Part shown: positions 3,174 through 22,184 of the stretch, piece after piece
How positions within the stretch are numbered: position 1 is the first letter of the stretch
How the letters are laid out: every line of letters starts with the position of its first letter
NCBI GenBank assembly: GCA_009781955.1
Contig: WQUT01000047.1
Coordinates: 1-22,811, forward strand
Source: Pseudomonadota bacterium
GTDB lineage: Bacteria; Pseudomonadota; Alphaproteobacteria; Rs-D84
Length of the DNA stretch: 22,811 bases
Direction of reading: 5' to 3'
Translations under genes and position numbers: made by a program
Notes under the pieces: generated by a model
Told to the model about the DNA's origin: nothing
Database searches by the model: none
Seen by the model: only the letters and a program-made list of their open reading frames with translations

Positions 3174-3334
3174 TCAATTTTCCCCGAACGAAGTGAGGAA
3201 TGGAAAATTGAGCGTCCTGCGAAGCCCTTGGCGAAGCGGGACTATTAAAGTCCCACTGACTTTGACACTGGGGCACCACCCTTTGCCCTGCGGGCTGGCA
3301 GGCCACGTCAATTTACCGCCACATCGGCGTTCGT

Positions 3335-4072
3335 CTAGTCCTGGCCCTGGCGCAGCGCAAACGTAATGGAAGATTCCGTTTGTTCCATAAGCAAGATACT
3401 GCCAATATCCTTCAAGGTCTCTACATGGGTTCCGCCGCACGGATTGGCATCGTATCCCTCTATAATCACAACGCTTACGCTTCCCTTTAATTCCCCTTTG
3501 CCCCGGAAAATATCTTTTGTCGCGCAGAATGCTTTTTCCATGGTTTCAAATTCCATGACCGACACTTTTTTGTCTTCGCCGATGACTTGATTGGCGATGG
3601 CGACGGCATCCGCCGCCGACTTGCCCGCTTTGTATGTCCCGGCAAAGCGTATGGCGCATGTTTCGCCGTCGGGGGCGATTTCTATGCCTTCGGGCCCGTA
3701 TCCGTCCGTCACGGCCTTGACGGCGCCCATCAATACATGCGCGGCCGTGTGCATGCGCGAATACCGGCGGCGGCGCTCTTTATCAATCTCAATTACGACA
3801 TCCGCGTCTTCTTTCAGACTATCCGCCTCGGGGGAATCAAAGGGCAGATCCAAAATCAAAAACAGCTGCCTGTCCAAAACAAGACCGCGCGCGATTGGGT
3901 ATTTTTTGCCGTCGGGCGCAACAAGGAATCCTTTGTCCTGGGGCTGGCCGCCGCCGCCGGGATAAAATATATTGCCGGACACCCACAAGGCGACGTTTCC
4001 CTGGACATTTCGTTTTTCAACGATATATGTTTCTTGGGTGGTTTTCCACGGTTCTTCTTGATAAGCGCGCAT
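3335..4072 (-). CDS. AlaX-type alanyl-tRNA editing protein (AlaRS editing / second additional domain homologue)
   Basis: Zinc and editing motifs HTAAHVL and CGGTHV, plus the N-terminal FYPGGGGQPQDKG segment typical of AlaX-M proteins. 245 aa. Confidence 0.8.
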   Translation of the reverse strand: MRAYQEEPWKTTQETYIVEKRNVQGNVALWVSGNIFYPGGGGQPQDKGFLVAPDGKKYPIARGLVLDRQLFLILDLPFDSPEADSLKEDADVVIEIDKERRRRYSRMHTAAHVLMGAVKAVTDGYGPEGIEIAPDGETCAIRFAGTYKAGKSAADAVAIANQVIGEDKKVSVMEFETMEKAFCATKDIFRGKGELKGSVSVVIIEGYDANPCGGTHVETLKDIGSILLMEQTESSITFALRQGQD

Positions 4073-4791: not shown

Positions 4792-6570
4792 ATGATTTCC
4801 AATAAATACCGCACGCATACCTGTGGCGGGCTGAATAAATCCAATGTGGGCGCGACCGTCACCTTGTCCGGCTGGGTGCATCGCAAACGCGACCACGGAT
4901 CGCTGCTGTTCGTGGATCTCCGCGATAATTACGGCATCACGCAATGTGTGTTTGACCTGACCGATGCCACTGTCGCCGGCATAGACAAAATCCGTCCGGA
5001 ATCCGTGATTACGGTCGGGGGCCGCGTTGTCGCGCGCGACGCATCCGCAATCAACGGCAAAATCCCGACCGGCGAGATAGAGGTCAAAGCGTCGGATTAC
5101 AAGGTGCTGAGCGAGGCCGACGTCCTGCCGTTCCAAGTATTCGGCGAAGAGGACGTGTCCGAAGACCTGCGCCTGAAACACCGTTACCTGGACCTGCGCC
5201 GCGAACGCATGCACGGCAAAATACTATTCCGCAACCGCGTGATACGGGCGATGCGCGACAAAATGTGGGAACTGGGCTTTTCCGAATTCCAAACGCCGAT
5301 TTTGGGCGCGACATCGCCCGAAGGCGCGCGCGATTTCATCGTGCCGTCGCGGCTGCACCACGGCATGGTTTACGCCCTGCCGCAATCGCCCCAGCAATGG
5401 AAGCAGATGACCCAGATTTCCGGGTTTGACCGGTATTTCCAGATCGCGCCGTGCATGCGGGACGAGGATTTGCGTTCCGACCGCATGCTGGAATTCTATC
5501 AGCTGGATTTGGAGATGTCGTTCGTAGAGCAGAGGGATGTCCAGGAAGTGTGCGAGGCGGTCGTAGTTTCGCTGATAAAGCAGTTCTCGGATGCGGCCAG
5601 GCTGCATCCCGAAATCCCCCAGATACCGTATGATGACGCGATGCTGAAATACGGGTCGGACAAGCCGGACCTGCGCAATCCCATAATAATCAGCGACGTT
5701 ACCGAAATATTCCGCAATTCCGATTTCGGGGTATTCGCGAACGCGATCCGCGACGGCGCGGTCGTGCGCGCCGTGCCCGCGCCAAAATCGGTGGACAAGC
5801 CGCGCAGCTGGTTTGACAAGGTAGAGGGTTTCGCCAAGGACGAGCTGGGGCTCGCCGGATTGGGATACATAGTGTTCGCGGAAGACGGCCCGAAGGGCCC
5901 GGTCGCAAAGAAACTGACCCCGGAACAGATAGCCGCCATCCGCGTTGCCGCGGGCGCGGACGCGGGGGACAGCGTGTTCTTTGTATGTGCGGCGCCGGAC
6001 ATTGCGGCCAAGGCCGCGGGCAAACTGCGCACGCGTTTCGGCGAAGAGCTGGGCCTGGTCAATCCGGATGAATTCCGCCTGTGCTGGGTCATAGATTTTC
6101 CGTTCTTTGAACCGGATCCGGAGTCGCCCACCGGCATTGCGTTCGGGCATAATCCGTTCTGCCGGCTGCTGGACGATTCGCATGAACTGGATTTGTCCGA
6201 GCCGTTAAAGCTGAAAGCGTCGCAGTATGACTTTGTCCTGAACGGCCAAGAAATCGGCGGCGGATCTCTGCGCAATTACAATCCGGAGAACATGCTGAAA
6301 CTGTTCGCGGCGACCGGATACGGCGAAGACATTGTCAAACAAAAGTTTGGCGGGCTGTATACCGCGTTCCAATACGGCGCGCCGCCGCACGGCGGGCTGG
6401 CCATGGGGATAGAGCGCATAGTCTGCATATTGTTGGGCGAAGAAAATCTGCGCGAGGTTACGATGTTCCCGACGAACCAGCGCGGCCAGGACCTGATGAT
6501 GGGCAGTCCGAACACCCCGTTTGAACAGCAGCTGCGGGATGTGCATATCCAGTTCAGAAAGAAAAATTAA
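4792..6570 (+). CDS. aspS: Aspartate--tRNA ligase (bacterial type)
   Basis: The N-terminus MISNKYRTHTCGGL...VTLSGWVHRKRDHGSLLFVDLRD aligns to the AspRS anticodon-binding OB domain. Class II motifs FRDE-like (MRDEDLR), QLDLEMSF and GGLAMGIERIV are present. AGAGG lies 6 nt upstream of ATG 4792. The listed GTG at 4744 lies inside the T-box helix. Confidence 0.95.
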   Translation: MISNKYRTHTCGGLNKSNVGATVTLSGWVHRKRDHGSLLFVDLRDNYGITQCVFDLTDATVAGIDKIRPESVITVGGRVVARDASAINGKIPTGEIEVKASDYKVLSEADVLPFQVFGEEDVSEDLRLKHRYLDLRRERMHGKILFRNRVIRAMRDKMWELGFSEFQTPILGATSPEGARDFIVPSRLHHGMVYALPQSPQQWKQMTQISGFDRYFQIAPCMRDEDLRSDRMLEFYQLDLEMSFVEQRDVQEVCEAVVVSLIKQFSDAARLHPEIPQIPYDDAMLKYGSDKPDLRNPIIISDVTEIFRNSDFGVFANAIRDGAVVRAVPAPKSVDKPRSWFDKVEGFAKDELGLAGLGYIVFAEDGPKGPVAKKLTPEQIAAIRVAAGADAGDSVFFVCAAPDIAAKAAGKLRTRFGEELGLVNPDEFRLCWVIDFPFFEPDPESPTGIAFGHNPFCRLLDDSHELDLSEPLKLKASQYDFVLNGQEIGGGSLRNYNPENMLKLFAATGYGEDIVKQKFGGLYTAFQYGAPPHGGLAMGIERIVCILLGEENLREVTMFPTNQRGQDLMMGSPNTPFEQQLRDVHIQFRKKN

Positions 6571-6596
6571 AACACGGGGCTTGGCCCCGCGTTTTG
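6571..6596 (+). terminator. Rho-independent terminator after aspS
   Basis: CGGGGC-ttg-GCCCCG (6575..6589) followed by a TTTT-containing tail. Confidence 0.7.
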
Positions 6597-6683
6597 ATTT
6601 AAGATTTATGATTTACGGATTTAAGATTTGTTTTAATATGAAAAGATTTAAATCTTAAATCAGCAAATCTTAAATCCTAAATT
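6596..6683. repeat. GATTTAA-word periodic inverted-repeat element, copy A
   Basis: Left arm gatttaa-gatttat-gatttac-ggatttaa-gatttg faces the right arm aaatc-ttaaatc-agc-aaatc-ttaaatc-ctaaat. It shares the exact 21-mer gatttacggatttaagatttg with 16981..17001. Confidence 0.85.
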
Positions 6684-6746
6684 ATGAAAACCTTCTTATC
6701 GCATGATTTCCGGCCGCTGGGTTATAATACAGGCGGGGGAGAAGTC

Positions 6747-7121
6747 ATGCAGGAAGAAACGTCAGTCCAGATATCTATTGATAGAATCGTTTACAGACTG
6801 CATCTGTCGCCGTATCAGGCGTTCATTTTGTCCCAGAACGTGCACAAGTATAAACTGGACAAGCTGATAAAGCGCGGAGAATTGCTATACGCCCCTTACC
6901 GGTGCGATCCCTGCAACAACTGGCGCGAACGCGCGGCGAAGATGCTCTTGGGGCCGCGCGCGGATTTGATCGGATCTGACCAGGTTCTGGTCGTGGATCA
7001 GCGCGGAATAAAACTGTATTCCACCGGATTTTACAAAGCGGGCGACGGATATGGCCACGCGTATTACGCCGATTCCCAAGGCCATAAGATAGAAAGAGGC
7101 ATACTGGGCGGCGGGCGATAA
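6747..7121 (+). CDS. Hypothetical protein
   Basis: The ORF is open from 6684, but ATG 6747 is preceded by GGGGGAG at the right spacing, and 6684 abuts the repeat element. No motif recognised. The start is uncertain (6684 or 6747). Confidence 0.5.
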   Translation: MQEETSVQISIDRIVYRLHLSPYQAFILSQNVHKYKLDKLIKRGELLYAPYRCDPCNNWRERAAKMLLGPRADLIGSDQVLVVDQRGIKLYSTGFYKAGDGYGHAYYADSQGHKIERGILGGGR

Positions 7122-7145
7122 AAAACGCGGCGTGGCCGCGTTTTT
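7121..7145. terminator. Bidirectional rho-independent terminator between convergent genes
   Basis: AAAAA-CGCGGC-gtg-GCCGCG-TTTTT. The A-run and T-run flank the stem symmetrically. Confidence 0.8.
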
Positions 7146-7173
7146 AGAGTTGAGAGTTGAGATACAACTCTCT
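7146..7173. repeat. GAGTTGA-word hairpin (two tandem heptamers plus one inverted copy)
   Basis: agagttg-agagttg-agata-caactctc. The stem is GAGAGTTG/CAACTCTC. It ends 2 nt from the asmA-family stop codon. Confidence 0.8.
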
Positions 7174-7174
7174 G

Positions 7175-9760
7175 TTAAAACCTTTCATGCGTCGCCATGA
7201 ATTCATTCAAAAAATCCGGATCTATTTTGGATGAGATTTCAAACAGCGAATAATCGCGGGATCCGTCGGGGGCGATAGAAAGCCTTATCGGTTCCGGCAT
7301 CGGCGACGTCCCGCGCAGCGTTATGTTCAATTGCGCGGCCAGTTTTCCGCCGGCAATTTTCAGCATGCCGGCTATGTCCGAATGCGCGACGCGCAAAGCG
7401 AACGGCCGGACCGTTTCAAAGTTTCCGGCATCGTATTTTCCTATTATATGCATGGACTTGATTTGCGTCCGCCCGCCGGTCAGCATGGTCGCCACCGCGT
7501 CGCCCATCGTCGCCCGCGTTACAGAGTCCGCGCCCGCATAGAATTGATCAATCCCCAGGCCGGACAATATCCCGCCGTCAAACGCCAGGTCCAGGCCGCC
7601 CGACATATTCGCCCAGAAATCATGCGCGGTGACGCCGGATGTTTCCAATTCCGCCTGGGCGGTGATCATGGTGTCGCCAAGGTTCAGCCCGGCGTTGTTT
7701 TGCAAAATATTTCCGGCGATGCCGAACCTGTTGGCCTGCAACAACGCACTATAACGGGATCCGCGCTTGTCCAGCGCGAACAGAATGCTGCCCCGCGCCT
7801 TGTCCGTTATGGACATTTGCTGGGAATTATCTTTGATGGCATATACAAAGTTCGCGTATTCTTCCCCGTTATACCTTAACCTGTTGGCGGAAAGGGTCGC
7901 CGATATTCCCAACGCGAACGGAACGGTCAGCGGCTCTGCCGTGACGAACTGTTCGGAATCATAATTCTGGACATAAGACGCGTTTATAAACGAATCTATG
8001 TCCAGGACATCGGCGCGCAGGTCAAACGCGCGCCCGTCGTATTTGCCGGAAATCGCCGCGCGGCCGTCGTCAAAGAATGTTATGTTCAGGCCGGACGCGT
8101 ATGGCGGGCGATAAACGCCCGAAACCGCCATCGGTATATTGTTTTTCAGGAATTTTGTGTCCAGGCCGGGATAATACGCCCGCAAGAAATCAATCAGGTT
8201 CGCAGTCATCCGGAACGCCCCGTCGCGCGCGACGCCGATTGACCATGCGTCGCGCCCGTTGCGGAGAAAGCCGAACGCCACCAGCGCGCCGTTTTTGATT
8301 TCGGCCGACTGAATCGCGCCGACGGCCGTTCGCATTGACGCCGGCAGAACGTCAAAGATTGGATGTTTCGCGGGCATTGCGTCCAGAAAAGTATTCTTTT
8401 TGGAAAACGATATCGTGTAATCATCGCCGCTGATTTCCGCAACGCCCGTCGTGTCGGGAAAAGCGAATTCAATATATCCGATGCGGTCGCCGAAATAATC
8501 GCGCAAGGCCTTTAATTGCGCAAGCGCCGGCTCTGGATTGCCCGACCGGATGCGCAGCGCATATTCCAGCGGCAGAACGGATAGAGATCCCGCGGCCGCG
8601 AATTCGCGCGAGCTGAAAGTAAAATTATTGCATGCCCAGTTGGTCGCGTCGCCCTCAAACTCGCAATAAATATCGGCGCCGTCTTTTAATATCCTGGCCG
8701 AGAGTCGCGTGCCGCGCCCCGTTATTTCCCCGGATACCAGCGCGGAAATGCCGCCGCCCATGACGTTGAGGCCGTCTATCAGGACCCTGTCCGCCGCGCC
8801 CGTGGATTTCAGGCGGAATTTATTAAATGTTCTGTCCATGAAAGAGAGCCGCCCCGACAAATCCAAATCCAAGTCGGAATTCCTTAAAACCCCCGCGTTC
8901 TGCAACAGGAACGTCATATCGTAATTCAGATTGTCTGCGCGCAGCCGCACGGATCGCCGCGCGCCGGATAATTTTATCTCGCCGGAAAAGGCCGCGCCCC
9001 CGGTCGTTCCCGATATATCGTAAAATCTGAAATCGTCCCCGCCGTTCCATTCGTATTTCATGCTGACCGCGACCGATGAATTCAGCGCCGGCACGTCAAA
9101 TGCGAACCATCTGTTGATTTTGTCCGTTTCTATGGCCAGTGTGCCGGCGGCGGATACATTGCCGGCGCTGTCGGTGGCCAATGTTCCGGTAATAGTCAGG
9201 TTGACGTTGGGATTCCGTATTACGAATTCGCGCCCGGCCAAATCAAAGGTATATTTATGCTGGTCGGTGCGGACGGTCCCGGAAAACAGCCCGTCTTTCA
9301 GACGGCCGTTTATGTCGCCGTATGTCTTGCCCATGAAATGAATCGCGGAGTTTTCAATTATCAGCTGGCTGTTCAATGCCGGCGGCGAGAGGCTGGCGAT
9401 ATCCAAATCCGCGCCGTATATCGATATAGAGGCGGGAATCGGCGCCGTTGAAAGCGAAAATATTTTTGCGATGGGAACGCGAAAGCTGACGGTGTCTATG
9501 TGATTGGCCCCCGCATATTCCGCAACCGTAATGTCATGCGCGGATATTGTCGCCCGCCCCAACAGGGATATCCGGACGCGTCCGTTGATTTTTATATGCA
9601 TGCCGGTCTGGTTCAGGACGGACGTTTCCAGTCCGGGTTTCAGCCGGTCCAGATTTATCATCGGCGGGATTATTATGACAGAGAGCAGCGCCGCGGCCGC
9701 GGCCGCCGCCGTCCACCAGAAAAAACGCGCCAATTTCAAATGCGTGCGAAGTCTTGCCAT
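7175..9760 (-). CDS. AsmA-family outer-membrane biogenesis/lipid-transport protein
   Basis: 861 aa with an N-terminal membrane anchor (FFWWTAAAAAAALLSVIIIPP). This is followed by an AsmA-type N-domain (INLDRLKPGLETSVLNQTGMHIKINGRVRISLLGRATISAHDITV) and a long beta-rich repetitive body. Confidence 0.7.
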   Translation of the reverse strand: MARLRTHLKLARFFWWTAAAAAAALLSVIIIPPMINLDRLKPGLETSVLNQTGMHIKINGRVRISLLGRATISAHDITVAEYAGANHIDTVSFRVPIAKIFSLSTAPIPASISIYGADLDIASLSPPALNSQLIIENSAIHFMGKTYGDINGRLKDGLFSGTVRTDQHKYTFDLAGREFVIRNPNVNLTITGTLATDSAGNVSAAGTLAIETDKINRWFAFDVPALNSSVAVSMKYEWNGGDDFRFYDISGTTGGAAFSGEIKLSGARRSVRLRADNLNYDMTFLLQNAGVLRNSDLDLDLSGRLSFMDRTFNKFRLKSTGAADRVLIDGLNVMGGGISALVSGEITGRGTRLSARILKDGADIYCEFEGDATNWACNNFTFSSREFAAAGSLSVLPLEYALRIRSGNPEPALAQLKALRDYFGDRIGYIEFAFPDTTGVAEISGDDYTISFSKKNTFLDAMPAKHPIFDVLPASMRTAVGAIQSAEIKNGALVAFGFLRNGRDAWSIGVARDGAFRMTANLIDFLRAYYPGLDTKFLKNNIPMAVSGVYRPPYASGLNITFFDDGRAAISGKYDGRAFDLRADVLDIDSFINASYVQNYDSEQFVTAEPLTVPFALGISATLSANRLRYNGEEYANFVYAIKDNSQQMSITDKARGSILFALDKRGSRYSALLQANRFGIAGNILQNNAGLNLGDTMITAQAELETSGVTAHDFWANMSGGLDLAFDGGILSGLGIDQFYAGADSVTRATMGDAVATMLTGGRTQIKSMHIIGKYDAGNFETVRPFALRVAHSDIAGMLKIAGGKLAAQLNITLRGTSPMPEPIRLSIAPDGSRDYSLFEISSKIDPDFLNEFMATHERF

Positions 9761-9819
9761 TCCCCGTTCCCCTTGTATTTTGATTATAATGTTCTATACT
9801 GAGGCAGTAAAGTGAAAAT

Positions 9820-9847
9820 GTAGGGGCAAATAATTATTTGCCCCTAC
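9820..9847. repeat. 28-bp perfect palindrome GTAGGGGCAAATAA|TTATTTGCCCCTAC (core-less form of the 67-bp element)
   Basis: An exact palindrome equal to the two terminal arms of the elements at 850 and 2988. It lies 12 nt upstream of the uvrB ATG. Confidence 0.9.
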
Positions 9848-9859
9848 AAGTTGGTTAAA

Positions 9860-11974
9860 ATGAATAAGAAAATTTTTGATCTTAAAAGCGACTATAAACC
9901 CACCGGCGACCAGCCGCGGGCTATACGCGAACTTGTGGGCGGCCTCCGCGCGGGCGAACGGTCCCAGGTTCTGCTGGGCGTCACCGGTTCGGGCAAGACG
10001 TTCACAATGGCGAACGTAATCGCCGAAATGGGCCGGCCCGCCCTAATTATGGCCCCGAACAAGATTCTGGCGGCGCAGCTTTATACCGAGATGAAGGGAT
10101 TCTTTCCGAACAACCATGTGGAATACTTTGTTTCTTACTATGATTATTACCAGCCCGAGGCCTATGTTCCCACAACCGACACCTATATAGACAAAGATGC
10201 GTCAATCAACGACCAGCTGGACCGCATGCGGCATTCCGCCACGCGCGCCATGCTGGAAGAACGCGACGTGGTCGTCGTCTCGTCCGTATCCAGCATTTAC
10301 GGATTGGGCTCGCCGGAAACATACTCGGAAATGAAGGCGACATTCGCGCCGGGCGATCGGGTCGGCATGCGCGATGTAATGCGCGGGCTGGTTGATTTGC
10401 AATACAAACGCAACGATATAGGATTCAATCGCGGCGAATTCCGCGTCCGCGGCGACAGTCTGGATATTTTCCCCAGCCACAGCCAAGACCGCGGCTGGAA
10501 AATGTCGTTCTTTGGCGACGAGGTTGAAGAGATTTGGGAATTTGATATTTTAACCGGGCAAAAAATACGGCGGCTTGAACGCGCGGTGGTGTATCCGAAT
10601 ACACATTACGCCACGCCGATGCCCAGCATTTTGCAGGCCTTGAATGAAATCCGCAGCGATCTGGGGCCGCGTCTGGAATATTTTCACGATAATATGAAGT
10701 ATATAGAAGAGCAGCGTCTGCGCGAGCGGACAAATTTTGACATAGAGATGATGGAGGCGACGGGCACATGCCGCGGGATAGAGAATTATTCGCGTTATCT
10801 GTCCGGGCGCCGTGCGGGCGATCCGCCGCCGACACTGTTTGAATATCTGCCCAAAGACGCTATTTTATTTGTGGACGAGTCGCACGTGTCGGTGCCGCAG
10901 ATTGGCGGAATGGCGCGCGGCGACCGCGTGCGCAAGGAAACGCTGGCCCAATACGGATTCCGTTTGCCCAGCGCGATAGACAACCGCCCGCTGACATTTG
11001 ACGAATGGGACAGATTCCGCCCGCAAACAATATTCGTGTCCGCTACGCCGGCGGATTGGGAATTGGAACAATCGCGCGGCATAGTCGCGGAACAGGTGAT
11101 ACGCCCGACCGGCCTCTTGGATCCGGTTTGCGAAGTGCGCCCGACAAAGAATCAGGTGGATGATTTGCTGGGAGAAATGATCCCCCTCCTGCGGAGGGGT
11201 GCCGCGCCTGTATTGCGCGGCGGGGAGGGTTTTGGATCACGCGAACCCTCCCAGTCAATTTTGCCCGCAAACAAGCGCGGCAAAATTGCCACCCCTCCAA
11301 AGGAGGGGAATCCAGGTCGCGTCCTTATCACCACTCTCACCAAAAAAATGGCAGAGCAATTGACGGACTATCTGACCGAAAACGGCGTCCGCGCGCGGTA
11401 TCTGCACAGCGATATTGAAACATTGGAGCGCATAGAATTGCTGCGAGAGCTGCGCATGGGAAAATTTGACGTCCTGGTCGGAATCAATCTGTTGCGCGAA
11501 GGGCTGGACATACCGGAATGCGAATTGGTCGCGATTATGGATGCGGACAAAGAGGGATTTCTGCGCAGCGCGCGTTCGCTGATCCAGACAATCGGCCGCG
11601 CCGCGCGGAATATAAACGGCCGCGTGATATTGTATGCGGATAAAATTACGGATTCCATGCGCGTGGCGTTGGATGAAACCGCGCGGCGCCGCGAAAAGCA
11701 AATGAAGTATAACGCCGAGCATAAAATCACGCCGCGCGGAATCGTGAAAACCATATTTGAAGAGGTGAAAGACCGCGGGGAAAGAACCGATAAAAAGCGT
11801 CAATTCGTTTATTCCAAGACCGGCGTTATGGATGCGGAATCTTTGAAAAAAGAAATAGCGAAACTGACGAAAGAAATGCGCCGCGCGGCCGAAGACCTGG
11901 AATTTGAACGCGCGGCAGGGCTCCGCGATACGGTGCATAAATTGGAAGACGATTTGTTATTGCTGGGGGGCTAA
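9860..11974 (+). CDS. uvrB: Excinuclease ABC subunit B, with an in-frame hairpin-array insertion
   Basis: [10 protein letters not shown], Walker [29 protein letters not shown], the helicase motifs, and the C-terminal [14 protein letters not shown] domain. I prefer ATG 9860 (MNKKIFDL) to the listed TTG 9851. Confidence 0.95.
11182..11308. repeat. About 127-bp array of five consecutive hairpins inserted in-frame in uvrB
   Basis: H1 CCCCTCC-tgc-GGAGGGG (11183..11199). H2 GCCGCGC-ctgtatt-GCGCGGC (11201..11221). H3 GGGAGGGTT-n12-AACCCTCCC (11223..11252). H4 AATTTTGCC..GGCAAAATT (11257..11287). H5 CCCCTCC-aaa-GGAGGGG (11292..11308). It is translated as ...[46 protein letters not shown]... Confidence 0.85.
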
Positions 11975-11990
11975 AACCATGCGTGGGGTT

Positions 11991-12467
11991 TTACTTTTTG
12001 CGATTTAAATCCCTTAATTGGCCCAGTAAATGTATAATTTCCACGCTGGTGAGTTCTGTTGGTTTGCCTTTGTCCCATGAATAAGTTCCATTGCTGGCAG
12101 TAATTTTTACATCCGGATCTTCTATAATTTCGCGGATTTTTTCGGTTTCAGTTCCAGTTTCTAAAAATCCTTTGTTGATTCTGTCGGATCGCCCAAACCA
12201 TTTTGCATCGCCGTTTTCTTCCTGGTCGCGCAATTGCTTGCTGCGTTTCAGATTCATCATGGCATCCCAAAATTTCCCGCCGCTGCTTTGTTTCGCCCGC
12301 CAGCTTTCCGTTATTTTTTGAGATAAGTTTTTGTATTTGCCCAGGGCGAAAAGAACCTCTGCCAAATCTGCGATGACGATGCGCATATCGCTGTTTTCCT
12401 GACGTAGCCGTTTTATTTCTTGTTCTGCTTGCGCGGCTTTTTGCGCGGAAGTTTCTTTTGCTGGCAT
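11991..12467 (-). CDS. Hypothetical protein (N-terminal coiled-coil-like segment), AT-rich
   Basis: 158-aa ORF with AAGGA 8 nt upstream of the ATG. No motif recognised. It is preceded by the structured leader at 12488..12745. Confidence 0.6.
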   Translation of the reverse strand: MPAKETSAQKAAQAEQEIKRLRQENSDMRIVIADLAEVLFALGKYKNLSQKITESWRAKQSSGGKFWDAMMNLKRSKQLRDQEENGDAKWFGRSDRINKGFLETGTETEKIREIIEDPDVKITASNGTYSWDKGKPTELTSVEIIHLLGQLRDLNRKK

Positions 12468-12487
12468 GATTCATTCCTTTGTTTTAA

Positions 12488-12745
12488 TACAAAAACCGCC
12501 AAAGAATTGGCGGTCGGGGAGTTCAAAAAATCATAGTAAAGAATGACCCCGCCAGTTTTTGTCCGCTTTCGCTTTCGCTGCAGCGCGACTGTTTTATAAC
12601 CGACGGCTCCCCGACCTTGTGGCGGGGCGTGCCGATAAAACAAAAGGCGCGTGCCGCGCCACAAGTTTATCGGGCGGATACGGCGCTTTTTATTGCGTCG
12701 CTTTACTATGGGCTTTTTGAAGGCCCCGAACCCAAATCCCTTTGG
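12488..12745 (-). ncRNA. Candidate structured RNA: riboswitch/attenuator-type leader or independent sRNA of unknown class
   Basis: Bounded by an extended -10 promoter and the terminator above. A 22-bp interrupted closing helix pairs 12701..12727 with 12516..12540. Two helices cross in pseudoknot topology: 12616..12624 with 12657..12665 (9 bp) and 12632..12639 with 12666..12673 (8 bp). Several pairings that involve the terminator arm are mutually exclusive. Confidence 0.45.
12489..12513 (-). terminator. Intrinsic terminator on the minus strand, about 20 nt upstream of the start of the 158-aa gene
   Basis: Minus-strand RNA reads CCGCCAA-uucu-UUGGCGG followed by UUUUUG (plus strand 12496..12513, with the A-run at 12491..12495). 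Confidence 0.75.
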
Positions 12746-12755
12746 ATTCCTACAA

Positions 12756-12805
12756 ATTATACCAATTTTTTTAAGATTTGCAAAACAATTTATTTTGGAT
12801 AGAAT
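12756..12805. promoter_or_regulatory. Back-to-back divergent promoters sharing one palindromic -35 hexamer (TTGCAA, 12778..12783)
   Basis: Minus strand: TTGCAA, 16 nt, then TGgTATAAT (hexamer 12761..12756, TG at 12764..12763). Plus strand: the same TTGCAA, 16 nt, then TAGAAT (12800..12805), leading to tsaE. Confidence 0.5.
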
Positions 12806-12814
12806 CCAAATATA

Positions 12815-13405
12815 ATGGATGTTCGGATGCAAGAAATTAAATTAAAAAATGTTGGCGAAACGCGGGCCTGGGCGGCGGAATTCGCAAAGACCCTGTGTGC
12901 GCCGTGCGTTGTTGCCCTGCACGGCGATCTGGGAATGGGCAAGTCAGAAATCGCGCGCAGCATTATTCAAACTCTCTGCGGCGCGGACACGGTGGTTCCC
13001 AGCCCGACGTTCACGCTGGTGCAGAGTTATGAATGCTCCGTCGCATGCCCCCCCTCTTGGGGGGGGCTGTCGCGCCGTAGCGATAGCGAAGGCAGACTGG
13101 GGGGGGCTACTTCCGAAAAAAATAGTAATAAAAAGTCATTAAATGAAGAAGTCCCCCCTCGTCGCCCTTTGGGCGACACTCCCCCCCACCGGGGCCCCCG
13201 CGCGACAGAGCGGATTTCCCATTTTGACCTATACCGCATTACTGATGCGTCGGAATTGGAAGAAATAGGCCTGGGCCATGCATGTGCGAATGATATTACC
13301 CTGATAGAATGGCCGGAAATCGCCGCCGGTTTTCTGCCCGCCAATACTATTCATATTTATTTGGAAGAATATGAAGGTGGCAGAAAATTGGAAATGACAG
13401 AATGA
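12815..13405 (+). CDS. tsaE: tRNA t6A37 threonylcarbamoyl-transfer protein TsaE (YjeE-type P-loop ATPase) with an in-frame insertion
   Basis: LHGDLGMGKSEIAR (Walker A), SPTFTLVQSYE, HFDLYRI and LIEWPE are the TsaE hallmarks. The 196 aa exceed the usual length of about 150-160 aa because of the insert at 13047..13208. The start could also be ATG 12827. Confidence 0.85.
   Translation: MDVRMQEIKLKNVGETRAWAAEFAKTLCAPCVVALHGDLGMGKSEIARSIIQTLCGADTVVPSPTFTLVQSYECSVACPPSWGGLSRRSDSEGRLGGATSEKNSNKKSLNEEVPPRRPLGDTPPHRGPRATERISHFDLYRITDASELEEIGLGHACANDITLIEWPEIAAGFLPANTIHIYLEEYEGGRKLEMTE
13047..13208. repeat. About 160-bp G-run/C-run nested-hairpin element inserted in-frame in tsaE
   Basis: GCCCCCCC-tctt-GGGGGGGC (13047..13067). 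Outer inverted repeat CTGTCGCGC (13067..13075) with GCGCGACAG (13200..13208). GGGGGG-ct-ACTTC with GAAGT-CCCCCC around an A-rich centre. GTCGCCC-ttt-GGGCGAC (13161..13177). Confidence 0.85.
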
Positions 13406-13508
13406 CAAAGTGACAGAGTGACAGAGTTATTGCAACCGCGCACAAAGTGCGCGGTTATTATTTGTTGCGGCTTTGCCGCAACACCACAACTCTGTCACTT
13501 TGTCACTC
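13392..13508. repeat. TGACA-octamer periodic inverted repeat enclosing two terminator hairpins (convergent tsaE / ftsA-rpe ends)
   Basis: Four TGACA at 8-nt period (13395, 13403, 13411, 13419) face two TGTCA (13493, 13501). Inner hairpins are AACCGCGCAC-aaa-GTGCGCGGTT (13434..13456) and GTTGCGGC-ttt-GCCGCAAC (13464..13482). Confidence 0.85.
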
Positions 13509-15287
13509 TTTGCGCAGCAAAGATTGCACCGCCAATGGAAAATCCGCGGCATTGGCCAGATACGACGCGGACGCCAGGAAATCCGCGCCCGCGGCCCAGC
13601 ATAGTTTCGCCGTCGCCGGATTGATTCCGCCATCCACGCTGATTTTGAAACACAACCCATATTTCCGCCGGGTATTGGCAAGCGTTGAAATCCGATACAC
13701 TGCATCCGGCAGGAATTCTTGCCCGTTCGGGCCGGGGCGTATAGACATCACCAGAATTTCATCAACCTCTTTTAATATCGGTTTCAATATTTCCAGCGGC
13801 GAATCCGGGTGCAGCGCGATTCCCGCCCGCTTTCCCAATTCGCGTATCTTTTTCAGCGCCGCCCGCGCGCCGTTCGTGCCGGTTGATATTATTATGGTAT
13901 CCGCCCCGGCCGCCGCCGCCTGTTCCGCCCAGATTATCGGGTTTTCGGTCATCAGGTGAACATTCAAATGAGCGTTTGTGTGTTCGCGGATAAAGCGAAG
14001 CTCGTCCATGCTGCCGGTTATTCTGTTCACATAAAATCCATCCATCACGTCGCAATGAATCATGCTGATGCCGCCGGATTCAAACAGCTTGTAAGTCGTG
14101 GGGCTGCGCATATTAAAACCCTGGGTGCTGGGCATAATCGGAATAAAGGCCGGCGTTTTCGCGATCTTTCTGCGGCGGAATATTTTGGGAAGCCAGGATA
14201 ACAATCTGCCCCATTTTTCCCGGCGGGCGACATAGTGTTTCGCGCGCGCCGCATCGTTCTGCCAGATTTGTTTGGCGCAGGCGGCGACGGCGGCGTCCGC
14301 CCCCAGATTATGAACGGGCAGCCCGAACATCTCGCCCGCCAGATTTTCTATTCCGGGTATATTCGTGCCGCCGCCGGAAATATAGACTGCTGACGGCCCG
14401 TATTTTTCTATGTGCCGCGCCAATTCTGCCCGCGCCAGTTCCATGATTTCGCGCAATGCGGGCAGGCCCGCGTCGCACACGTCGGCGCGCGACAATTCGT
14501 AACCGGCGTCCGCGACAGCGAATCTGTCCATTTCGCTGGATGCGGCGACAAGGCTGGCCACCTTTATCTTTTCCGCGTCGGGGAAAGGAATGCGCAGCCT
14601 GTCGGCTATATCGTTTGTGATTTTAATCTGGCCCATCGGGATCTTTGACAGCGACACGATGCCGCGCGCGGTCCAGCATGACACGGTTGTCCATGCCGCG
14701 CCCAGGTCAATGAAGACGGCGGGCGCGGCGGATTTGCGCGCGGCCATCCCGATAAGCACCGCCGGGTCAAAAAAGCCCGCCGATTCTATGTGCGCGGTGC
14801 GCAATACGGATTGCGCCGAATGCATGTCTTCGCGCGAATAAGAGATGACATGGAACACCGACGACAGGGCGCAATCGGTCTGGCCGACCGGCAGCGATAT
14901 GTTCTTGAATCCGGGGATGTCATAGCGCAGCGGGATTATATGCAGCGGCGCCTCGTTCGCGTTCTGCAAATCAAACAATATTTCGGAAATCTGTTTGCCG
15001 ATGTCGTTCGCGGAAATCTTGCGCGCGCCGCCCCATTCCGTCGTTTTATTGATTATCGCCGACCGCGCGAATCCGAAATCGCCGGTGACATAGGCCGATT
15101 CAAAATGCTTTCCAAGTTGGGATTCCAGCTCGTCAACCGCGGTTTTAAGGGCGAACGCGGTGTCGGGCGATTCGCAGATTTTCAGAACGCTCTGCGCGAC
15201 GCGGCCGCCGCGCACGCGAACGCCCAGCGCGCGGACCGCAGAGGATCCCAGATCAAGGCAAAGAAAAGACGAGTCAATCAGGTTCAT
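13503..15287 (-). CDS. ftsA: Cell-division protein FtsA fused in-frame to ribulose-phosphate 3-epimerase
   Basis: N-terminal roughly 370 aa: actin-fold FtsA (LCLDLGSSAVRALGV, VFIDLGAAWTTV, ITNDIADRL, YISGGGTNIPGI), ending in an amphipathic helix KWGRLLSWLPKIFRRRK. The frame then continues without a stop into an Rpe domain (IHCDVMDG, NVHLM, LVMSIRPG, ISVDGGI). I prefer ATG 15287 (MNLIDSS) to 15311, which lies in the repeat. Confidence 0.8.
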   Translation of the reverse strand: MNLIDSSFLCLDLGSSAVRALGVRVRGGRVAQSVLKICESPDTAFALKTAVDELESQLGKHFESAYVTGDFGFARSAIINKTTEWGGARKISANDIGKQISEILFDLQNANEAPLHIIPLRYDIPGFKNISLPVGQTDCALSSVFHVISYSREDMHSAQSVLRTAHIESAGFFDPAVLIGMAARKSAAPAVFIDLGAAWTTVSCWTARGIVSLSKIPMGQIKITNDIADRLRIPFPDAEKIKVASLVAASSEMDRFAVADAGYELSRADVCDAGLPALREIMELARAELARHIEKYGPSAVYISGGGTNIPGIENLAGEMFGLPVHNLGADAAVAACAKQIWQNDAARAKHYVARREKWGRLLSWLPKIFRRRKIAKTPAFIPIMPSTQGFNMRSPTTYKLFESGGISMIHCDVMDGFYVNRITGSMDELRFIREHTNAHLNVHLMTENPIIWAEQAAAAGADTIIISTGTNGARAALKKIRELGKRAGIALHPDSPLEILKPILKEVDEILVMSIRPGPNGQEFLPDAVYRISTLANTRRKYGLCFKISVDGGINPATAKLCWAAGADFLASASYLANAADFPLAVQSLLRKE

Positions 15288-15296
15288 GGTTAGGCG

Positions 15297-15339
15297 CTGG
15301 GCACTGGGCACTGGGCACTAGTTACTAGTGCCCAGTGCC
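15297..15339. repeat. CTGGGCA-heptamer hairpin between ftsQ and ftsA
   Basis: ctgggca x3, then ctagt|t|actag tgcccag tgcc. A 16-nt perfect inverted repeat pairs 15307..15322 with 15324..15339. The right end overlaps the ftsQ stop codon. Confidence 0.9.
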
Positions 15340-16028
15340 TATTTTACAAATGTTCTTTCCGGATCGCGCAGATCCAGGACGCGGATATCGCGGGCGAGGA
15401 TGTCGGTTTTCTTGTCCAGCTCGGCCAGTCTGCGGATCGCGCCCTCTGCGTTATTTTCCGGCAGTTTGACGATGACGCCGGAATTCAGCGCCAAGTCCCA
15501 CCGCCGCCCGTCGGTCCATTCCAGATAGTTCAATTCGGCCATGATTTTTGGCGCGCGCGTCACGGCGCCCGCTATGCCGCCCAGATCGTTCGGCAAATCC
15601 CCGCGAAAGACCAGCGAGTTTTCCGGCCTCTGCCCCGACGGGCGGTTTATTTTCGTCCCGTCGGCGCCGATTGGATAATAATGCGTTCCGTCCGTCCAGG
15701 CGGCGATCGCGGTCCGCATTTGGACCTTGATTTTCAGCGTCCCGTTCGGCATGCGGCGCACGGACGCCGCGTCTATGTCCGGAATGGCGGAAATCCGCGC
15801 CAATACGTCGCCCAATTTCACCCGGTAAGTCGGCGTGCGCGGGGAAATGCCGATGGCCGCGGCGATGGCGGATTTGTCCGCCGCGCCGTTTCGCGAAGAA
15901 ACCGAGATGGCCCGTATATCGGCAAAGCCGCCGCGCCCCATGACCAGCATGGTCAGCCGCACGGAAAGATAGGTCGCGATTATAATGGCGAATGCGAAAG
16001 CCGCCCAAAAAAGAAAGGTTTTTCTCAT
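15339..16028 (-). CDS. ftsQ: Cell-division protein FtsQ (POTRA domain)
   Basis: 229 aa with a single N-terminal TM segment (FLFWAAFAFAIIIATYLSV). It has a POTRA-like segment and lies immediately upstream of ftsA on the same strand. Confidence 0.75.
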   Translation of the reverse strand: MRKTFLFWAAFAFAIIIATYLSVRLTMLVMGRGGFADIRAISVSSRNGAADKSAIAAAIGISPRTPTYRVKLGDVLARISAIPDIDAASVRRMPNGTLKIKVQMRTAIAAWTDGTHYYPIGADGTKINRPSGQRPENSLVFRGDLPNDLGGIAGAVTRAPKIMAELNYLEWTDGRRWDLALNSGVIVKLPENNAEGAIRRLAELDKKTDILARDIRVLDLRDPERTFVK

Positions 16029-16091
16029 AACCGGAATTATATCAGAAAAAGCGGAAAAGTGAAATAAAGAAACAGCGACAACGATTGCTTT

Positions 16092-16481
16092 TTACATAGC
16101 CCTCAGCAGATAGCCGCGGCTGAACATGCATCTGCGGTAAGATCCGACCGATTTGGATGTCGTGTTAGGCGGAACGGACATCAGCATGCGCTGGCCTATG
16201 TCTTGGTTTTCGTTGGATTGGAATGTTACCCACAGGCCCTCCCAATTAGGCATCTGGCTGGCGCCGCTGGGCATCAGCAGCTTGGCCGCGCGGGACCGCG
16301 GTATGTGCGCCGGCGCCGTTATACCCAGGCAGGCCCGGTGGTCGCGGACGAACTGCGCCAGGGTCACGTGATCGTTTTCCCAGTTAAGTATGGTCGCGTT
16401 GTCTATGCTGCCGCCGTTGGGGGACGAGCAGCCCCAAACCGTAAAAAACAAGGCGCAAAGCAGAAAAAAGGATTTTTTCAT
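16092..16481 (-). CDS. Hypothetical lipoprotein
   Basis: MKKSFFLLCALFFTVWGCSS: signal peptide with a lipobox-like VWG|C. 129 aa, no other motif recognised. Confidence 0.6.
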   Translation of the reverse strand: MKKSFFLLCALFFTVWGCSSPNGGSIDNATILNWENDHVTLAQFVRDHRACLGITAPAHIPRSRAAKLLMPSGASQMPNWEGLWVTFQSNENQDIGQRMLMSVPPNTTSKSVGSYRRCMFSRGYLLRAM

Positions 16482-16530
16482 AATTCCATTATAATTTAAT
16501 TGCGTTGACGGGGCAATAGTTTTTATAATG

Positions 16531-16636
16531 CCGGTGAATGGTAACTGGCGGCTGGTGATCCGTAATCGGAAACCATCTGGCGATATAAGTTATAATACCA
16601 ATCACCAGTCACCAGTTACCAACCACCAATCACTGC
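16531..16636. repeat. CACCAG-heptamer periodic inverted repeat in a divergent promoter region
   Basis: Left arm ccggtga-atggtaa-ctggcgg-ctggtga (16531..16558). Right arm tcaccag-tcaccag-ttaccaa-ccaccaa-tcactgc (16602..16636). The 43-nt spacer contains TATAAT (16591..16596). Confidence 0.8.
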
Positions 16637-16657
16637 GAGCGACCGGGGGGAGCGAGC

Positions 16658-16966
16658 ATGAACAATGTAAACAAATTCATACAGCTGGCGAATTTCTATA
16701 ACCAGATGCTGGCCGTCATGGCGGCCATATGCGTTCAAAAGGGCGGCATCCCGATAGAGCAATACGTCGGGCGATTCTTTGCCGCGGACGTTCTGGAATT
16801 CCTGGCCGAATACGGCGCAAAGCTGCAAACCGACGATGAGTCTGTCCAGCGCGTCGCCGCGCTGTTCAGGGCGGAATATGAAAAGGCGAAAGATCTGACC
16901 ACGCCCAGCCAAAAGCCGATATTTGAGATGACGCTGGAAGAATTTGAAAAAGTGATGAACATTTAG
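16658..16966 (+). CDS. Hypothetical protein (102 aa)
   Basis: GGGGGGAG lies 7 nt upstream of the ATG. No motif recognised. Confidence 0.55.
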   Translation: MNNVNKFIQLANFYNQMLAVMAAICVQKGGIPIEQYVGRFFAADVLEFLAEYGAKLQTDDESVQRVAALFRAEYEKAKDLTTPSQKPIFEMTLEEFEKVMNI

Positions 16967-17051
16967 GATTTAAGATTTAAGATTTACGGATTTAAGATTT
17001 GCGGATTTAAGATTTAAAAAATCAAAAATCATCGGTCTTAAATCTTAAATT
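16966..17051. repeat. GATTTAA-word periodic inverted-repeat element, copy B
   Basis: ggatttaa-gatttaa-gatttac-ggatttaa-gatttgc-ggatttaa-gattt faces aaaaatc-aaaaatc-atcggtc-ttaaatc-ttaaat. It starts at the stop codon of the upstream gene. Confidence 0.85.
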
Positions 17052-17064
17052 AAGCGGTGTTGAA

Positions 17065-18393
17065 ATGAAAAAAACGTTTTTGTGCTTTATGCTTTATGCC
17101 CTGTGCCTGGTCCCGCTTGCCGGTTGTTTGAAGGCGCCGGGGCAGCAGGGAGAGGTTCCGCCCTATGACACTGTCCAGGTCATAGACAATCTGGTCGTTG
17201 ACCAGAACTCGGTTCCGATTTTCCCGCGCAAAGCCGCGCTGACCACCGATACCGCGCGCCGGTTTTCCATAGAATTGCCGAAACGCTGCACCGTGGATTG
17301 GGATAACCAGACCATTTTGTCCGTCGTCCCAGAGACGCCGATGGAAATGACGCGGCTGGCGGTCGGCGACCCTCTGCCGGACTTTAACGTGGAAGATTAC
17401 TCGTTTGAAAAACTGACGGTCAAAGACGCCCTGCAAAAATTGTTAAAGGGGACGAGGATAAGGGTGATAGAGGACGAAGACCTGCCGGACAAAATCACAG
17501 GAACCATAAAATCGGGTTCGCTTTCCGACGCGGTTGAATTGATCGCGAAAATGGGCAAGGTCTATTATGCCTATGACGACAACGCGCGCCAGCTGCGCAT
17601 AGGGGCGCACGGCAAATGGCTGATTAAAATGCCGCGGGACCAGAATATGATAATGGCGCTGCTGGATGCGATGCGCGGCGCGGAGATGCGCAACCTGCTG
17701 GTCAACTGGGAAGACAAGACCGTTTCGCTAGAGGGCAATTTCCAGACCGAGCGCGATGTGAAAAAAATAATCGCGGACATGGGGTCGCGCAAATTCCTGA
17801 TCGCGTGGGACATGGACGTTTACCGCGTGTATCCGCGGACGGACAATCCGATAGTATGGATGAACATACTGCCCGCGATGGGGGAAAACAACGTGAAGAT
17901 GTCCATTCCCGGCGTCGTAGGGCGCCTGCTGCTGACCAGTCCGGAAATAAATACCAAGACTTTGCAGCAGTTCCTGTCGCAACAGGCGAATCTGGTCCTG
18001 ATTTCCCAGGGAACGTTCGTGATTCCGAACGGGTGGCAGTCGCGGTTTGACATCGGCCAGTGTTCGCGCGAAGAGCGTTTGGAAACAAACCTGATCGTCG
18101 GGGCCCAGGCCACATACGGCGACTATGCCGGAATGAAAAAACTGGATGCCAAGATTGTTCTGCGCACTAATTCCGGCGAAATATCGGCGTTCAACGTGCC
18201 GTCGGCTCTTGGCGACAACTATGTCATAATCGGGATACCCACGCATTCGTTCGTAGACACGCCCGAAACCCTTATATCGCCGTTTGCAGAGCTGGTGGTG
18301 TTCATGTCGCCCCGCATCATATCCATAGTCCCGCGGCAACAGAATTTCACGCCGGTTTCCGGCCAGGCCCTGCGCGATTATTTGGAAGAGTAA
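17065..18393 (+). CDS. Outer-membrane lipoprotein, possibly a divergent compact secretin
   Basis: Lipobox LAG|C (MKKTFLCFMLYALCLVPLAGC). An STN/N0-like segment (LTVKDALQKLLKGTRIRVIEDEDLP..GSLSDAVELIAKMGKVYYAYDDNARQLRI). The C-terminal AELVVFMSPRII resembles the conserved secretin C-terminal strand. The assignment is by eye only. Confidence 0.35.
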   Translation: MKKTFLCFMLYALCLVPLAGCLKAPGQQGEVPPYDTVQVIDNLVVDQNSVPIFPRKAALTTDTARRFSIELPKRCTVDWDNQTILSVVPETPMEMTRLAVGDPLPDFNVEDYSFEKLTVKDALQKLLKGTRIRVIEDEDLPDKITGTIKSGSLSDAVELIAKMGKVYYAYDDNARQLRIGAHGKWLIKMPRDQNMIMALLDAMRGAEMRNLLVNWEDKTVSLEGNFQTERDVKKIIADMGSRKFLIAWDMDVYRVYPRTDNPIVWMNILPAMGENNVKMSIPGVVGRLLLTSPEINTKTLQQFLSQQANLVLISQGTFVIPNGWQSRFDIGQCSREERLETNLIVGAQATYGDYAGMKKLDAKIVLRTNSGEISAFNVPSALGDNYVIIGIPTHSFVDTPETLISPFAELVVFMSPRIISIVPRQQNFTPVSGQALRDYLEE

Positions 18394-21251: not shown

Positions 21252-21285
21252 TTTAAGATTAAATCTAAATGACGTGGGGAAAAAA

Positions 21286-21996: not shown

Positions 21997-21999
21997 ATA

Positions 22000-22161: not shown

Positions 22162-22184
22162 AATAAATCAAAAAGGAGGAAAGA

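Follow-up and report, generated by a model that had tools for sequence, protein, structure and literature searches.

Tandem heptamer arrays facing their inverted copies in an uncultured alphaproteobacterial lineage, a variant of the known heptanucleotide repeats

We analysed a 22,811-nt stretch of genomic DNA (contig WQUT01000047.1 of assembly GCA_009781955.1), called the window hereafter, in which short words of 7-8 nt are repeated in tandem between genes and face inverted copies of the same word. The pattern is real and non-random, and the arrays are a variant of a known, poorly understood class of heptanucleotide repeats. Compared with the same gene junctions in relatives, they behave as fast-turnover palindromic insertions rather than as conserved regulators. 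The explanation we favour, giving it about an even chance, is that they are selfish or mutational palindromic repeat DNA kept at permissive sites, and not dedicated regulators.

Results

Array hairpins in the window

All six sites listed by an earlier sequence-only reading of the window were recovered at their positions by direct reading, Tandem Repeats Finder and an inverted-repeat search (Table 1), and its suspicion that they exceed chance is borne out. A strict scan for arrays of 7-8 nt with a reverse-complement partner no more than 120 nt away returned 4 loci in the window and 0 in every one of 30 dinucleotide shuffles. A more lenient detector counted 26 array loci per 100 kb of window, 22 of these with an inverted partner, compared to 1.2 and 0.0 per 100 kb, respectively, in 768,607 bp of unrelated metagenome loci. 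Tandem Repeats Finder and our own scan assigned 5 loci to period 7 and one to period 8; arrays of period 6 occur, never with an inverted partner, and our scan detected no arrays of period 5, 9, 10 or 11. Of the intergenic gaps measuring 50 nt or more, 14 in all, 6 contain an array hairpin, and every site folds into a long, near-perfect hairpin with energies from -12 to -66 kcal/mol (z about -4 to -10).

Table 1. Word arrays and associated features in the window (plus-strand coordinates)
Feature	Position	Strand	Units and structure	Context	Folding energy
GATTTAA/GATTTAT heptad array	6596..6683		4.7 units vs 4.9 inverted, 20-nt spacer; arms 33 nt, 88% complementary		-28.8 kcal/mol, z -6.3
AGAGTTG mini-array	7146..7173		x2.4 vs single inverted unit (CAACTCTC)	weakest site	-11.6 kcal/mol
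nnnTGACA octamer, whole structure	13392..13512		x4.1 vs x2.6 inverted		-63.5 and -65.8 kcal/mol (two strands)
Left octamer array	13392..13429		(A/G)A(A/G)TGACA x4	contains tsaE stop TGA 13403-13405	
Two inner GC hairpins inside octamer arms	13434..13482		13434-13456 and 13464-13482	first one called terminator-like for tsaE	
Right inverted octamer array	13487..13512			contains ftsA-rpe stop 13503-13505, minus strand	
GGCACTG heptad palindrome	15291..15341		x3.9 vs x2; arms of 3 and 2 units; centre CTAGTTACTAG		-33.5 kcal/mol
GGTGAAT/GGTAACT/GGCGGCT/GGTGATC array (GGTnnnn x4) vs ACCAATC/ACCAGTC/ACCAGTT units	16531..16636		x4 vs ACCAnTC x5.3		-44.3 kcal/mol
GATTTAA array	16961..17051		x7.9 (two 8-nt units, 15-nt super-period) vs 2 clean inverted units and decayed ones		-24.4 kcal/mol
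TTTATGC direct heptad array	17079..17099	+	x3, no inverted partner	at 5' end of 434/442-aa ORF	
One-unit palindrome, GATTTAA family	21252..21269		TTTAAGATT/AAATCTAAA	between zeta-like and ABC-ATPase genes; read directly in sequence	

Word families, arms and pairing register

A different, locus-specific word had been proposed for most loci. We found instead that the words are dispersed families recurring across loci, with GATTTAA at two loci and in a one-unit remnant, GGCACTG at two loci, and GGTCGKT at three loci in two genomes. Including the 9.4 kb upstream of the window (locus L005), which brings the host genome examined to about 32 kb, at least seven words occur; they have no common core, the distances between words being the same as between random heptamers. 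The second GGCACTG palindrome, at L005 1749-1800 and 9 kb upstream of the window, directly follows a stop codon and has the identical CTAGTTACTAG centre. In the same upstream locus about ten GGTCGGT units and inverted copies surround a 180-nt AT-rich, promoter-like core upstream of gyrB (5269-5529), and a TGGTCGG array lies within the N-terminal coding region of a secreted protein (1035-1063), a further N-terminal array within an open reading frame (ORF) being present in the relative L130 (6094-6114); both are comparable to the TTTATGC array of the window (17079-17099).

The two arms mirror each other beyond the repeated word. Rare unit variants stand at paired positions in both arms, namely AGAAACC, GGTCATT and AGTCGTT in the relative L006, TAGTCTT in the relative L015 and one 8-nt unit, GATTTACG, at 6596-6683, and in L130 (12155-12290, -78.8 kcal/mol) the palindrome runs on into non-repetitive unique sequence. 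Both observations argue that the arms are inverted copies of a multi-unit segment and not independent expansions. Arms can be unequal, as with 8 versus 2 units at 16961 and 3 versus 2 at 15291.

The sequence-only reading had further remarked that stems built from tandem words can pair in shifted registers, offering this as a possible regulatory device. The pairing itself is physically possible, a shift by one period leaving the helix at several sites about 60-90% of the energy of its best register; there is no evidence for a regulatory role of such shifts, given identical copy numbers in four assemblies of one relative, hairpins that are not canonical terminators and the lack of a sense-strand G-U bias described below.

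Turnover at orthologous gene junctions

The window is a housekeeping region of the chromosome, with aspS, a 124-aa ORF (hyp124), an asmA-like gene, uvrB, tsaE, an ftsA-rpe fusion, ftsQ, small conserved ORFs and lolC- and lolD-like genes in this order. A 56-kb contig of the ENA metagenome assembly ERZ27257338 ends with the window sequence. The host is uncultured: its FtsQ corresponds to NCBI MCL2331413.1, from a metagenome-assembled genome (MAG) labelled 'Pseudomonadota bacterium', and MAGs carrying homologues of the 124-aa ORF bear the labels Alphaproteobacteria or Rickettsiales. The samples may come from termite gut. FtsA and ribulose-phosphate 3-epimerase (Rpe) are encoded as a single 594-aa ORF (13503-15287, minus strand), a fusion kept at 572-594 aa in every sampled relative, to as low as 42% identity.

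Relatives were found using FtsQ, the FtsA-Rpe fusion and the 124-aa ORF as probes, yielding 3-20 kb per relative. The gene neighbourhood is largely kept in these, L130 being rearranged, so that the junctions can be compared one by one. Relatives found by AsmA in GTDB genomes (36-37% identity) carry no arrays and are too distant for a useful comparison.

Arrays are restricted to part of the lineage. They are present in the window genome, L006, L015, L019/L131 and L130, weaker in L129 and L021, and missing from L010, L012-L014, L016-L018, L020 and L023, in which the corresponding junctions measure 3-30 nt. The ftsQ-ftsA junction carries five words in five lineages, i.e. GGCACTG in the window, AGTAACC in the L006 type (88% FtsA-Rpe identity to the window), TAGTCTA around an inner GC hairpin in L015, GGATAAC in L019/L131 and AGAGTAG in L130, while eleven other lineages including L010 (65% FtsA-Rpe identity) have an array-free gap of 3-30 nt (142 nt in L129). 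The rpe/tsaE junction has three words, the window using TGACAGAG, L006 and L024 the related ATGACAAA (with a short loop) and L015 GAATTAT. At the hyp124/asmA junction the window has the GAGTTGA mini-array and L131/L132 have a large TAGATAC/TAGATAG hairpin, with no array and a gap of about 10-12 nt in L124 and L127. The array of the aspS-hyp124 gap is likewise missing from L124 and L127, the latter having only the terminator followed by TTTTAATTTATGAAAACC, which resembles the GATTTAA/GATTTAT word. In L124, which belongs to an L006-type organism, this gap holds CCCCC...GGGGG hairpin elements (3150-3407) and no heptad arrays, showing that sister species fill one gap with different hairpin families.

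Seven junctions can be compared between the window and L006. Arrays occupy six of them in the window and three in L006, with two positions in common and a related word at just one of these two. At 16531-16636 an insertion of about 100 nt separates a conserved promoter-like block from the ribosome-binding site of a 102-aa ORF (16658-16966); it is present only in the window, its flanks being about 95% conserved in L006. At the position of 16961-17051, L006 has a 16-nt GC hairpin instead. Neither of these two insertions, for which the empty sites are known, shows a target-site duplication, and their arm ends are ragged. Three of the words are similar to ancestral sequence bordering the array: AGTGACAG to ...CAG TGA CAG at the rpe stop of L019, GATTTAT to AATTTATGA of L127, and ATTTAGG to the region around the stop of the 102-aa ORF.

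On short timescales the arrays are stable. L006, L007, L008 and L009 (from ENA, two JGI and Logan assemblies) differ by 2-6 single-nucleotide polymorphisms per 1-3 kb, all outside the arrays, with 0 gaps and identical copy numbers, and the arrays of L131 and L132 are identical. The unit-number polymorphism that the sequence-only reading had suggested looking for is thus absent from the four L006-type assemblies and from the L131/L132 pair.

As a separate observation, L018, otherwise without inverted arrays, contains a dispersed two-hairpin element of about 70 nt ending in (CATTATT)n at ~16950-17076 and ~19460-19595.

Terminators, stop codons and transcripts

As had been described, arrays border on stop codons or include them, and there is one in the ftsQ-ftsA gap and another in a 5' leader. 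The site at 6596-6683 is flanked by the intrinsic terminator of aspS (6575-6589) and the conserved leader and promoter-like region of the 124-aa ORF (6747-7121), and the mini-array at 7146-7173 has the asmA-like stop (7175-7177, minus strand) on one side and a bidirectional terminator (7126-7141) on the other. Both begin directly after canonical terminators, and the site at 13392 encloses two GC hairpins; arrays adjoining or enclosing pre-existing GC hairpins are also seen in L015 and L018. A terminator scan called the aspS and tsaE inner hairpins and none of the array stems, and no U-tract or T-run follows the arrays. In an Rfam scan only tRNA-Thr exceeded the gathering score, the array sites giving only chance-level matches to miRNA precursors (E ~0.7-0.9). 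RNA-level selection was considered and rejected: there is no sense-strand bias, with 12 G-U pairs in the sense and 15 in the antisense folds and similar folding energies, and there is no hint that a particular transcript is under selection.

The overlap with stop codons is close. The GGCACTG palindrome lies in the gap between the ftsQ stop (TAG, 15339-15341) and the ftsA start (ATG at 15287), both on the minus strand, and the first base pair block of its stem is the ftsQ stop itself. The stop of the 102-aa ORF (TAG, 16964-16966) lies inside the first unit (ATTTAGG) of the 16961-17051 array, and the convergent tsaE and rpe stops are both within TGACA words. A stop-capable word is found in 13 of 17 gene-end arrays, compared to 31-44% expected (P ~2e-4 to 7e-3, the cases not all being independent). 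In L006 the array overran the ftsQ stop, lengthening FtsQ by LQVTSNQKPVTSKR (about 13 residues).

The 440-nt non-coding gap between a 131-aa ORF and tsaE (12387-12826), not present in L006, contains several terminator-like hairpins; the minus strand of 12504-12616 gave a sub-threshold Rfam match to sRNA-Xcc1 (37 bits versus a gathering score of 53, E 0.0013).

In-frame copies and other palindromes

Arrays also occur in frame within housekeeping genes, where the same protein loops are hit repeatedly. One surface loop of UvrB carries a heptad array in L026 and an in-frame heptad/octad hairpin in L130 (-36.6 kcal/mol, encoding TNKGQRTKGQVPDKCPSVHLSICPSS); in the window the same loop contains a palindromic, non-heptad element of 123 nt (11180-11302), in frame and adding 41 residues missing from the L012/L013 orthologues. 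This element ends in CCCCTCC...GGAGGGG, its family is also found between genes at L005 4545-4653, and its behaviour resembles that of Rickettsia palindromic elements. TsaE has one such loop, located between its TFTLVQ.Y and ISHFDLYR motifs. Heptad arrays occur there in frame in L025 and L026. The insertion in the window (~13040-13215, inside tsaE at 12827-13405) adds 57 aa in frame and contains nested inverted repeats; that of L006 (4742-4890) adds 50 aa and contains a 20-nt inverted repeat of 95% complementarity.

Further palindromes of the window are of other types. REP/REPIN-like, GTAG-headed palindromes (TGTAGGGGCAAATAA/TTATTTGCCCCTACA; GTAGGGGCAAA) at 9819-9848, 2988-3054 and 822-944, one of which is perfect over 30 nt and lies in the promoter region of the divergent asmA and uvrB genes, are a repeat family separate from the heptad hairpins. 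Downstream of the ABC ATPase gene (21997-22184) nested inverted repeats with outer arms GACTACCCCGG...CCGGGGTAGTC and inner GGGTATCT/CCCTTC-type hairpins are not heptad-based. Upstream of the lolD-like ATPase gene, a zeta-toxin/AAA-like ORF (20574-21251) without an epsilon or omega partner overlaps the end of the lolC-like gene.

Discussion

Origin of the arrays

We infer that the arrays arise by slippage and fold-back synthesis and have no dedicated function. Replication slippage acting on hairpins, one of the explanations offered by the sequence-only reading, comes close to this best explanation. A unit of 7-8 nt beside a gene end or a stable hairpin, often seeded by the local sequence including the stop codon, would be reiterated by slippage. 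Fold-back synthesis (snap-back or template switching) would then copy the array, at times together with unique sequence, across a hairpin or regulatory core, resulting in two mirrored arms and a palindrome growing outward, with an occasional spread of copies to other loci. Such insertions would survive only at permissive places: in 5' leaders, in protein surface loops that tolerate them, and at gene junctions, where a word containing a stop ends any reading frame. When transcribed, the arrays fold into very stable RNA hairpins, which may have incidental effects on the ends, processing or stability of transcripts. From the older literature, polymerases are known to elongate repetitive oligonucleotides in a hairpin-driven manner. 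For polymerase theta, stem-loop extension yielding inverted-repeat insertions has been documented (PMC11292364). Slippage, fold-back and permissive survival together can account for mirrored and unequal arms, enclosed terminators and promoter-like cores, the lack of a target-site duplication, strand bias or U-tract, the stop overlap, the in-frame copies and the patchy phylogeny.

Several points weigh against this explanation. Its steps are inferred, none having been observed directly, and it offers no reason for the 7-nt step or the absence of periods 5, 9, 10 and 11. Slippage is not rapid on short timescales, because copy numbers are identical in the four L006-type and the two L131-type assemblies, and same-word copies with identical loops at distant loci demand a dispersal step beyond slippage. 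The resemblances between words and putative seeds are short (6-9 nt) and could be coincidence or a product of the array itself. Independent gain of arrays at ftsQ-ftsA by five lineages could just as well reflect selection for a hairpin at this junction. With about 32 kb of host genome and 3-20 kb per relative, genome-wide claims are extrapolations.

Selection for a hairpin leads to the main rival, which we judge unlikely: the hairpins would be cis-acting RNA stem-loops setting transcript boundaries, RNase III processing or mRNA stability, comparable to the REP/BIME stabilisers, the stem being what matters while its sequence drifts. The use of one junction, ftsQ-ftsA, by five lineages with unrelated words is the best argument for it. 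The arrays also sit at transcribed junctions (ftsQ-ftsA, gene 3' ends, a 5' leader) with very stable folds, the one at 16967 takes the place of the small GC hairpin of L006, and heptamer repeats alter reporter expression in Nostoc (bioRxiv 10.1101/2022.06.06.494920). However, the arrays lack a U-tract or terminator call, canonical terminators already stand beside or inside the sites at 6596, 7146 and 13392, and the sense strand shows no G-U or energy bias. Presence and absence vary between relatives that are 88% identical, the arms at L005 5269-5529 and L021 487-626 flank a promoter-like core and would not be part of one transcript, in-frame copies in uvrB and tsaE are hard to see as regulators, and the tandem periodicity is left unexplained.

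Dispersal of same-word copies raises the possibility, in our view rather improbable, of non-autonomous elements resembling MITEs (miniature inverted-repeat transposable elements), the arrays being terminal inverted repeats made of binding words for a transposase encoded elsewhere in the genome. Distant copies that share their centre or loop (GGCACTG at 15291 and L005 1749; GATTTAA at 6596 and 16961, with a common 15-nt super-period) and insertion polymorphism between relatives are in line with this. So are arms flanking cargo such as terminators, promoter-like cores and, in Nostoc punctiforme, a four-helix-bundle gene, the dispersed 70-nt L018 hairpin element ending in (CATTATT)n at two loci, and a viral contig with one conserved array hairpin between most genes. 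The missing target-site duplications at the two insertions with available empty sites, the free variation of unit numbers and arm lengths, and the absence of a transposase within 32 kb and on the loci of the relatives speak against it; at least seven words in 32 kb would need either many transposases or one without sequence specificity.

A more far-reaching idea, which we consider doubtful, is that heptad palindromes are written by a dedicated activity (a polymerase, nuclease or mobile-element enzyme combining a 7-nt step with fold-back) or read by a heptad-periodic binding protein, possibly shared horizontally by Nostocales, Xanthomonas, Beggiatoaceae, some phages and this alphaproteobacterial family. 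If this is true, the series of array-bearing and array-free relatives would allow the responsible gene to be found by phylogenetic profiling.

The operators of omega of pSM19035 are heptads (WATCACW) with a 7-nt period that work in direct and inverted orientation. Arrays of binding sites for a protein reading such a period, whether a ribbon-helix-helix (RHH) repressor like omega, a cold-shock/S1 domain protein or a HutP-like ring, with the two orientations organising a nucleoprotein complex, would agree with this period and with one cold-shock domain per heptamer (cited in PMC4679880), and a binding protein has been postulated for the heptamers of Beggiatoaceae (PMC4679880) and Nostoc (bioRxiv 10.1101/2022.06.06.494920). 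We nevertheless regard it as very improbable: the words have no common core and are as distant from each other as random heptamers, many paralogous readers would be needed, no candidate gene lies near any array, and in-frame coding copies and fast word turnover are left unexplained. A link to omega operators via the zeta-like ORF was dropped, no omega, epsilon or RHH gene being found and the words being unrelated.

Ordinary terminator hairpins combined with chance microsatellites, or an assembly artefact, are excluded. Real terminators do adjoin some arrays, and the site at 7146-7173, with its 2.4 units and one inverted, would alone be unremarkable; yet none of the 30 shuffles yields any locus, 769 kb of unrelated loci hold no inverted-partner array, and the same arrays are present in independent ENA, JGI and Logan assemblies.

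Heptanucleotide repeats have been known in bacteria since 1990 and are over-represented in several phyla. The arrays of the window are of moderate interest alone and of greater interest as a comparative system on what makes these repeats. In this lineage the comparison is unusually clean: synteny is conserved, some relatives are free of arrays, and different words have repeatedly hit the same junctions and protein loops. This allows a search for gene gain or loss correlating with the arrays. For annotators it matters that these elements overwrite stop codons, extend proteins and lie in frame inside housekeeping genes.

Comparison with known repeat systems

The arrays lack the features defining intrinsic terminators, MITE ends (inverted repeats with a target-site duplication), phase-variable repeats and omega operators; insertion polymorphism and multiple copies, as in MITEs, are found.

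REP/REPIN sequences, mobilised by RAYT transposases, are short intergenic palindromes, often in inverted pairs, forming species-specific families with a conserved GTAG/CGTC head on an imperfect palindrome of 20-40 nt. The array hairpins share with them the short palindromes in transcribed gaps; unlike these, they have no GTAG/CGTC head, and the REP stem is unique sequence and not made of tandem words. The GTAG-headed palindromes of the window (9819-9848, 2988-3054) fit REP better. Rickettsia palindromic elements are reportedly palindromic selfish DNA found between genes and in frame in permissive loops of housekeeping proteins. Their alphaproteobacterial host lineage and in-frame palindromic insertions, here in uvrB and tsaE and missing from orthologues, are paralleled in the window and its relatives; in contrast to the arrays they are families of 100-150 bp with conserved unique sequence and no tandem heptads, the likeness being one of behaviour.

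CCCCAGT, TTGGTCA and CAACAGT are the canonical words of the STRR repeats. These repeats of heterocystous cyanobacteria are tandem heptanucleotides with several word families per genome, mostly intergenic and of unknown function (Mazel et al. 1990; Vioque 1997). The sequence-only reading rightly chose them for comparison: both 7-nt head-to-tail units and several dispersed word families in one genome are present here, whereas the host is labelled Pseudomonadota and is not a heterocystous cyanobacterium, and the words differ from the canonical ones. Likeness of individual words to STRR1-3, TAACTGA and others was dropped, each known word being at most one substitution away as are 55% of random heptamers; TTGGTCA in L006 is the sole exception to this chance-level similarity to STRR1-3. 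The first 50 kb of the Nostoc punctiforme plasmid pNPUN01 contain six array loci, four of them facing inverted copies (words AGGAGTC, TTATCAG, GAGTAAT, AGGCAGG). This inverted-pair architecture is exactly that of the window, at a density of 8 versus 22 inverted-pair loci per 100 kb. In 50 kb of plasmid alpha of Nostoc PCC 7120 we found three direct arrays and no inverted pairs. On pNPUN01 (L096 1559-2001), a gene for a 'four helix bundle protein' of the 23S intervening sequence (IVS) protein family is bracketed by a further pair of AGGAGTC arrays in inverted orientation, and the Coxiella IVS, which encodes this family, carries tandem heptamers (PMC4990558). There may be a wider link between this gene family and heptad arrays. 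The hypothetical ORFs of the window include no such gene, and a link to the window arrays was rejected.

TAACTGA repeats form intergenic arrays of 2-6 or more copies with a patchy phylogeny in Beggiatoaceae, cyanobacteria and Bacteroidetes (MacGregor 2015, PMC4679880). They share with the window arrays shorter repeat-free gaps in relatives and stop codons in forward orientation (PMC4679880), and differ in being one word, nearly always direct (1 inverted in 170), placed just upstream of start codons. Geobacter metallireducens has multicopy elements of 4-5 tandem heptanucleotides (GGGACCG, MTYCTGA) between and within genes (PMC2700814); unlike the arrays of the window these have a fixed copy number and word per family, and the authors read them as regulator sites or RNA elements.

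An IMG/VR scan for (GATTTAA)3 returned contigs rich in array hairpins, one carrying many words; the viral contigs with GATTTAA arrays have no sequence in common with the window. One phage-like contig (L113 2935-13017, GC 0.39; also L110 and L112; uncultivated viral genomes 3300036766_000602 and 3300032163_001985) has one conserved array hairpin between nearly every gene; in this element a conserved loop of about 50 nt separates GATTTAA/GATTTAT arrays from the inverted ones, and there are seven copies in 14 kb.

Among the close published counterparts are the GGGAATC heptamers of Xanthomonas, with 70-75 convergent inverted array pairs per genome able to form stem-loops or cruciforms (Rehm et al. 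2015, PMC4692102). Their type is conserved, their length varies between species, and the arrays are intergenic (PMC4692102). Two arrays of the same heptamer on opposite strands and close together are common to both systems; Xanthomonas uses one G-rich, G-quadruplex-capable word, whereas the window has many words, none of them G-rich or with a G3 tract. The statement of the sequence-only reading that no described system combines word arrays with their inverted copies does not hold in view of these pairs (PMC4692102), and together with the Nostoc punctiforme plasmid and the IMG/VR contigs they show that the architecture is not new. What is new is the occurrence of such arrays in this host lineage and at this density, with several words turning over at orthologous junctions and with copies in frame.

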